Virus record (IMG/VR): IMGVR_UViG_2648501318_000002
Coordinates: 1-5,127 of that record
Length of the DNA: 5,127 nucleotides
Origin: a virus
Taxonomy: Duplodnaviria > Heunggongvirae > Uroviricota > Caudoviricetes
Reading direction: 5' to 3' (one strand)
Part shown: positions 4,582-4,884 of the stretch, in pieces
Layout of the letters: each line of letters starts with the position of its first letter
Numbering within the stretch: position 1 is the first letter of the stretch
The notes under the pieces: model-generated
The model's database searches: none
What the model saw: the letters and a program-made list of their open reading frames with translations, nothing else
What the model was told of the DNA's origin: nothing
Program-made: the position numbers and the translations under genes

Positions 4582-4734
4582 CAGAAGTCACCGGAGTTGT
4601 TCAGGCTCCGATGAGAGGATTATGGCGGATTGATTACGATAAATCAAAACTATCTTGAAGCCAAAACAGTGATCTTCGCTTTAAAAACCTTGTATACTTT
4701 CACCTAATCACAGCCAGAACTATGGATCTAACCA

Positions 4735-4884
4735 ATGACCAACAAAGAAAACAAAGATAAATATATTAACAAGTTCAAGAAAGAGCTTTCAAAATATATA
4801 CAACCAACTGCTGGAGTGGACATTCAATTATTTAACTCTAAGGATGGTGGTGGTGTAATTAAAGCCACTTTGAATAGAAGGTAA
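4735..4884 (+). CDS. Hypothetical lysine-rich ORF in an AT-rich segment, interrupted by the IS1 end (last two codons and stop are IS1 sequence)
   Basis: ATG at 4735; product MTNKENKDKYINKFKKELSKYIQPTAGVDIQLFNSKDGGGVIKATL then RR-stop from IS1. Weak Shine-Dalgarno. TGTATACT extended -10-like element at 4691..4698. No family recognised. Confidence 0.25.
   Translation: MTNKENKDKYINKFKKELSKYIQPTAGVDIQLFNSKDGGGVIKATLNRR

Follow-up and report, generated by a model that had tools for sequence, protein, structure and literature searches.

Within the 5,127-nucleotide stretch of DNA analysed here (the window), an insertion of IS1 has inactivated a gene that comes first in a conserved cargo unit of two genes found on mobile elements. 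The two genes, which we call A and B, form a conserved and translationally coupled pair for which we found no family name, structural relative or published function. The IS1 event itself is routine, an ordinary step in the decay of a defective prophage and a textbook case of insertional inactivation. The value of the case is the target that IS1 has hit, an unnamed conserved pair that is found across Proteobacteria on prophages, on integrative islands and on a plasmid-like contig. The A-B pair may protect against phages.

The interrupted gene A and its IS1 element

The window is an exact match, as the reverse complement, to the chromosome of E. coli CV839-06 (NZ_CP025753.1), which was isolated from a diarrhoeic piglet; a window position equals the position in the corresponding locus (L002) minus 4301. 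The prophage that holds the window is a defective DLP12-like lambdoid prophage. Its minus-strand genes include rrrD (interrupted), essD, quuD, ylcG, rusA, ybcO, ninE, ybcN and a small ylcH/orf33-like ORF, and its plus strand carries an OmpC/NmpC-type porin gene. The first large gene of the nin-like operon of this prophage is ybcN, which is context and lies outside the cargo. For the ylcH/orf33-like ORF, the annotation of E. coli 536 gives a hypothetical protein and the phage 82 record X92588 gives orf33. The features of this part of the window are listed in Table 1.

Table 1. Features around the interrupted gene A, in window coordinates
Feature	Position	Strand	Basis
ybcN, NinB/Orf-family, 151 aa	4015..4470	-	ORF list; RefSeq 'YbcN family protein'
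ylcH/orf33-like small ORF of the phage backbone (31 aa), located upstream of ybcN	4467..4562	-	ORF list
Leader/promoter region of the nin-side operon, conserved backbone	4563..4649	-	Phage identity; X92588 annotation; promoter scan call
Cassette start, with the 5' UTR and putative promoter of gene A	4650..4734	+	End of homology, GC, positional -10-like hexamer
Remaining 5' part of gene A (the first 48 of 125 codons and one base of codon 49)	4735..4879	+	ORF list; reconstruction equals E. coli 536 protein
Left copy of the IS1 target-site duplication TGAATAGAA	4871..4879	.	Right copy 768 bp further, beyond the window
IS1 end with 3' end of the transposase gene, GGTAATGACTCCAACTTATTGAT inverted repeat and 3' part of the insB frame (minus strand)	4880..5127	-	RefSeq annotation, length, repeats, Pfam

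The preliminary description of this DNA had reported a lysine-rich plus-strand ORF that runs into IS1 at position 4880. This ORF is present at 4735-4884 and encodes 49 residues (MTNKENKDKYINKFKKELSKYIQ...), with lysine accounting for 28% of the first 25. IS1 starts in the window at 4880 (GGTAATGACTCC...) and extends 520 bp past the window end, and its full length is 768 bp (L002 9181 to 9948). The element is bounded by imperfect terminal inverted repeats of about 23 bp and of the GGTGATGCTGCCAACTTACTGAT type, which agree at 18 of 23 positions, and the end that lies inside the window is presumably the right inverted repeat in the naming used for IS1. In RefSeq the transposase, which is encoded on the minus strand, is labelled 'IS1-like element IS1A family transposase, programmed frameshift', and the genes called on the element match the Pfam families Zn_ribbon_InsA, HTH_Tnp_IS1 and DDE_Tnp_IS1. 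Both flanks of IS1 carry a 9-bp direct target-site duplication, TGAATAGAA, as had been predicted within a range of 8-9 bp. The element had also been credited with the last two codons of the ORF and its stop. The TAA stop is indeed derived from IS1, but only a single codon is affected, the AGG at 4879-4881, which takes two of its three bases from IS1 and changes Ser49 to Arg, leaving 48 native codons. A length of 768 bp, imperfect 23-bp repeats, a 9-bp duplication in AT-rich DNA and the insA/insB frameshift are all as in known cases of IS1 insertional inactivation, and we found no point of difference.

Removal of IS1 and one copy of the duplication in silico restored a frame encoding a 125-aa protein identical to WP_000182282.1 of the IS1-free strain E. 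coli 536, in which the gene is uninterrupted. The ORF had been proposed to be the 5' end of a gene continuing past IS1, and the frame does resume after the 9-bp duplication. Over 1024 nt, the IS1-excised sequence of CV839-06 has two mismatches to E. coli 536, and the B proteins are identical. The exact restoration of the ORF, the two differences and the identity of B therefore indicate that the insertion was recent and simple. The 320 bases that precede IS1 were found in 46 of 5,426 complete E. coli genomes; the IS1 junction was present in CV839-06 only, and the 45 others carry an intact gene whose product is identical to the reconstructed 125-aa protein. In addition, the same truncated 49-aa product is recorded in many further assemblies (81 index blocks, with a second 4.9-Mb contig among them), and it follows that the IS1 allele is passed on within a lineage.

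In CV839-06 gene A is split after codon 48, and B, which starts 239 bp past IS1, is intact but is now severed from the upstream region. The IS1 that separates B from that region has a transposase gene that reads opposite to A-B. Insertions of IS1 are classically polar. Since 62% of A has been removed and a polar effect of IS1 on B is to be expected, CV839-06 and its clonal relatives very probably carry an inactive module.

In the draft assembly GCA_000835055.1 (JPQX01000067.1, 3001-6150; L068), the place of B after the truncated ORF and IS1 is taken by PapB-like, K88 fimbrial and usher genes. This arrangement is probably a mis-join or a rearrangement across IS1, and the neighbouring genes hint that the IS1-bearing lineage is K88 (F4) porcine enterotoxigenic E. 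coli (ETEC). In Shigella sonnei, many records of A give only part of the protein and come from the ends of very short contigs (about 330-4,600 bp), which suggests that repeated IS copies adjoin or interrupt the gene in this species too.

The cassette and its slot in lambdoid prophages

The AT-rich insert had been described as spanning 4583-4884. The AT-richness is real from about 4650, where the GC content is 33.5% (4650-4879; 35.7% when counted over 4583-4879), compared with 50-53% in the nin genes and 51% in the IS1 part. The preceding bases are a different matter: positions 4560-4649 share 80-93% nucleotide identity with phages 82, HK639, CobraSix and several lambda-like phages, and this identity stops at about 4649. 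On these alignments we place the left edge of the AT-rich cargo at about 4650 and assign the 67 bases at 4583-4649 to the conserved lambdoid backbone.

The region next to this boundary carries candidate signals on both strands. On the minus strand, a promoter scan called a -35-like TTGATT (4647-4642) with a -10-like CATAAT (4624-4619), and the phage 82 record X92588 annotates the same region, upstream of orf33/orf151, with a putative -35, a putative -10 and a repeat given as 'possible regulator-binding site'. On the plus strand, a GGA motif resembling a Shine-Dalgarno sequence lies about 10 nt ahead of the ATG of gene A. An extended -10-like element had been noted upstream of the ORF, and TGTATACT is present at 4692-4699; however, its TG directly abuts the hexamer TATACT (4694-4699), so it is not a canonical extended -10. 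No acceptable -35 for TATACT was found, and the consensus promoter scan makes no call there. Each of three diverged cassettes has a -10-like hexamer (TATACT, TATAAT or TATGAT) some 35-40 nt ahead of the ATG, and this recurrence at a similar distance makes a putative gene A promoter plausible at that site. A consensus scan of the cassette detected neither a full promoter nor, after B, a canonical terminator, and an Rfam search of 4400-5127 gave zero matches.

Homology to the phage backbone ends at about position 6090 of locus L001 (about 4649 in the window) and restarts at about 7084 inside P, and this gap defines a cassette of about 1 kb. Its GC content is 34.3%, versus 50-53% for the nin and O/P genes. 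The cassette is positioned between the replication gene P and ylcH/ybcN and is antisense to the phage early-right operon; in E. coli 536, the flanking genes ybcN and P are both encoded on the strand opposite to that of A and B. In a tblastn search, A was absent from 50,697 isolated phage genomes, and the nucleotide matches to phages were confined to the backbone. In other E. coli prophages with the ylcH/ybcN backbone the content of the slot varies and includes ren with emrE and ybcK, a HEPN-domain pair with a P22AR-like gene, an alpha/beta hydrolase with an IS66-family element, and IS1 with a rearrangement. The low GC content (34%), the absence from isolated phage genomes and the variable content of the slot in related prophages bear out the earlier suggestion of a horizontally acquired cargo. 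Location in a variable slot between backbone genes and a foreign composition also support, at the level of sequence comparison, the classification of the cassette as prophage cargo (a 'moron').

The position is also kept outside E. coli. In Enterobacter, Klebsiella and other Enterobacteriaceae, homologues of A-B (65-92% identity) are always found at the equivalent position and on the opposite strand, between the replication module and NinB or DUF1367; the replication and Q modules of these prophages otherwise differ. In the prophage of GCA_030132385.1 (L003), in which A is 67% identical, the same inter-module region also contains two sets of genes, one colicin-like and immunity-like, the other DndB-like and HNH (3665-5348 and 7118-8971). 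This suggests that the region accumulates conflict-related cargo. In E. coli 2015C-4944 (NZ_CP027390.1, 4888-5684; L045), a HEPN-domain protein and an overlapping small partner are encoded where E. coli 536 has A-B.

Hotspots of P2 and P4 prophages and satellites are known to hold anti-phage systems (Rousset et al. 2022, PMC9122126), and E. coli prophages carry the PD systems (Vassallo et al. 2022, PMC9519451). The slot described here is like these cargo hotspots in being a fixed site with interchangeable and compositionally foreign content, and some of its occupants, such as the HEPN pair, are defence-like. However, we did not find the P/ren to ylcH/ybcN slot of DLP12-like prophages described as a defence hotspot, and the A-B pair fits none of the models of the PD-T4, PD-T7 and PD-Lambda systems, which are included in PADLOC-DB v2.

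The A and B families and their possible function

In E. coli 536 the product of gene A has 125 aa (WP_000182282.1) and is without a hydrophobic N-terminal (signal-like) segment. Gene B overlaps A by 4 bp (ATGA) and encodes 142 aa (WP_000608370.1); by hydropathy estimate, the protein consists of a soluble N-terminal part of about 45 aa, three predicted transmembrane (TM) helices and a short polar tail. The reconstructed A protein was expected to have homologues, and our searches returned 13 close clusters and, from a profile search of 1.84 billion representatives, 109 clusters at E<=1e-3, mostly of 120-135 aa and down to about 20% identity. The family motifs of A are Y-x-N-x-F-R, G-G, Q-x-x-F-G-G-N-L, F-x-G-T-N, I-x-L-I-K and E-W. 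An AlphaFold2 model of a 92%-identical homologue, based on 22 diverse sequences, had a pLDDT of 90.4 and a pTM of 0.86 and predicts a confident alpha/beta fold in the order helix, three strands, helix, two strands and two helices; according to this model, the truncated A keeps only helix 1 and strands 1-2. A profile scan of the genome contigs with the 22-sequence alignment gave two loci only. The B family comprises 17 close clusters and is likewise unnamed.

Neither protein could be assigned to a characterised family. Scans of A and B against Pfam and NCBIfam gave no family match, only sub-threshold membrane noise, and the PHROGs matches were limited to the families phrog_18061 and phrog_16940, both listed as of unknown function. 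Sequence profile searches of the PDB with the A and B families returned nothing credible, and no fold match was obtained. In PADLOC-DB v2.0.0, no family matched A or B of E. coli 536 at E<=1, and none matched six further partner proteins at E<=1e-3. No DNA-binding domain or known antitoxin domain was recognisable in A. A literature search on the A and B accessions and the PHROG identifiers gave no relevant paper, the prophage-defence screen of Brenes & Laub 2025 (Cell Host Microbe) lying outside its scope, and the accessions are absent from the DefensePredictor supplements.

The pairing of the two genes is retained across the family. At every locus that we read and that extends downstream, the A homologue, with identity down to about 23-34%, is followed by a gene for a membrane protein, and the two usually overlap by 4 bp. 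Most of these partners have the layout of B, with a soluble N-terminus and three TM helices, and an EGTPEE-like motif is conserved in the distant branch; in the loci L060, L062 and L064 the partner is a single-TM protein. In P0105 (447 aa, found in two samples), the A domain forms a fusion with an endonuclease domain of the HNH type (Pfam E=1.3e-12). Outside Enterobacteriaceae, A was found on phage-like contigs with integrase, lysozyme and holin genes, on a mobilisable-plasmid-like contig with MobC/NikA and a weak relaxase match, and on a contig with a Phage_rep_O gene.

Two islands place A near known defence systems. In L060, IetA and IetS end 310 bp upstream of A (PADLOC E=7.7e-130 and 4.9e-250) and integrase fragments are adjacent, and in the L064/L062 island, which has a resolvase on one side and an integrase on the other, PD-Lambda-1 is found 3 kb upstream of A (L064, E=5.9e-169). 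Known defence systems are therefore close to A in 2 of about a dozen independent contexts, which is a small sample. A pooled PADLOC scan of 54 further neighbours gave nothing beyond C5 methylase and generic ATPase matches; an AriA/AbiL-like match among the pooled neighbours does not come from L055, as a direct scan showed, and is left out of account. Two chromosomal contexts are without obvious mobile or defence genes. One is beside ligA/zipA in L010, where the neighbourhood contains a gene for an Xre-MbcA/ParS antitoxin-like protein, and the other is beside V-ATPase-like genes in Thiohalobacter. In Thiohalobacter thiocyanaticus (L022, 8363-8740), the B-like partner, downstream of the A homologue, is no longer hydrophobic beyond residue 70 or so and its tail looks unrelated; this gene may be a frameshifted and decaying copy in a chromosomal context.

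Based on these features, we tentatively propose that A-B is a prophage exclusion or abortive-infection module, composed of a cytosolic component and a membrane effector. This reading fits best in view of the pairing of a soluble with a small membrane protein, the translational coupling, the carriage on mobile elements, the occasional adjacency to defence systems and the fusion to a nuclease. A and B would be expressed together in the lysogen, the cytosolic A subunit would sense or gate, and B as the membrane effector would perturb the membrane or block entry upon infection by a competing phage. A wider version of the proposal is one that we hold to be possible but rather doubtful: A-B would be a previously undescribed anti-phage system that is widespread in Proteobacteria and combines a cytosolic component of a fold without known relatives with interchangeable effectors (3-TM, 1-TM and HNH fusion), the P/ren-ylcH/ybcN slot would be a defence hotspot, and the copy in the window would be a naturally IS1-inactivated one.

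The nearest functional parallel is RexA/RexB of lambda, an exclusion system that is expressed from the prophage and consists of a cytosolic protein and a small multi-pass membrane protein. Both pairs are two adjacent genes on a lambdoid prophage, with one product that lacks a membrane segment and another that is a membrane protein, and RexB (144 aa) and B (142 aa) are similar in length. A-B is oriented against the lytic early-right operon, which is the direction to be expected if a gene is expressed in the lysogen. However, RexA has 279 aa and A 125, the three predicted TM helices and conserved soluble N-terminal segment of B are unlike RexB, and RexAB adjoins cI whereas A-B occupies the P-to-nin slot. 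Homology was rejected, with hhalign probabilities of 0.04% for the A family against RexA and 0.4% for the B family against RexB.

A toxin-antitoxin or addiction module, in which B is a small membrane toxin and A its cytosolic antidote, encoded first and translationally coupled to the toxin, and which stabilises the carrier prophage, plasmid or island rather than defending it, is in our judgement unlikely. The compact operon with its 4-bp overlap, kept as a pair, would suit such a module, as would carriage on prophages, a mobilisable-plasmid-like contig and islands and the Xre-MbcA/ParS antitoxin-like gene near A in L010; modules with membrane toxins are also small overlapping bicistrons on mobile elements, with a small membrane protein as the second product. 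On the other hand, A-B has no homology to known toxin-antitoxin families in Pfam, NCBIfam or PADLOC, and A has neither a DNA-binding domain nor a known antitoxin domain that we could recognise. The persistence in many assemblies of an allele in which A is destroyed and B is intact also speaks against such a module, although this is a weak point in view of the polar effect that IS1 should have on B. Toxin-antitoxin and defence roles are not mutually exclusive.

The probability is low that the pair instead serves lysogenic conversion or a physiological role at the membrane, B being a small protein of transport, ion handling or envelope stress, with A as its partner in the cytosol. One source does label B a 'VIT1/CCC1 family predicted Fe2+/Mn2+ transporter', some homologues are in chromosomal settings that do not look mobile, and emrE can occupy the same prophage slot; yet the transporter label is accompanied by no Pfam or NCBIfam match at threshold, and the A-HNH fusion and the adjacency to IetAS and PD-Lambda-1 fit transport poorly. 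Finally, AT-rich DNA yields Lys/Asn-rich frames by chance, and a truncated ORF of 49 aa annotated as 'hypothetical' might be one of these, with IS1 having landed in a non-coding spacer of junk DNA. Such a chance ORF is excluded by the 125-aa frame that is restored on removal of IS1, the 109 clusters that reach about 20% identity and keep invariant residues, the fold predicted at a pLDDT of 90 and the conserved downstream partner.

If A-B is a defence module, it would represent a new system, and lambdoid prophages, a type that ranks with the commonest in E. coli, would have a new cargo hotspot; CV839-06 and its relatives could then serve as natural knock-outs for comparison. Should the pair prove to be an addiction module or a membrane factor, the analysis would still name a family of more than 100 clusters that are now annotated only as 'hypothetical'.

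Further features of the prophage

The left end of the window (1-198) is the terminus of an IS3-family element (annotated as 'IS3 family transposase') that splits the prophage lysozyme gene rrrD; the sequence resembles what we take to be the end of IS2, TAGACTGGCCCCCTGAATCTCC. The ORF of 129 aa at 148-537 (minus strand) is the N-terminal fragment of rrrD, with its final 15 or so residues derived from the insertion element. Since rrrD is split in this way, the IS3-family element is a second insertion sequence in the same prophage as IS1, and the prophage is lysis-defective.

We also found an intact 360-aa gene for an OmpC/NmpC-type porin at 1326-2408 (plus strand), between Q and the lysis genes and on the strand opposite to the phage late genes. 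The copy of this porin gene in DLP12 of K-12, nmpC, is presumably disrupted by IS5. In the window, the porin gene is preceded by a stretch of 28-29% GC (AT-rich 1000-1300) and is a further compositionally foreign cargo of the prophage.
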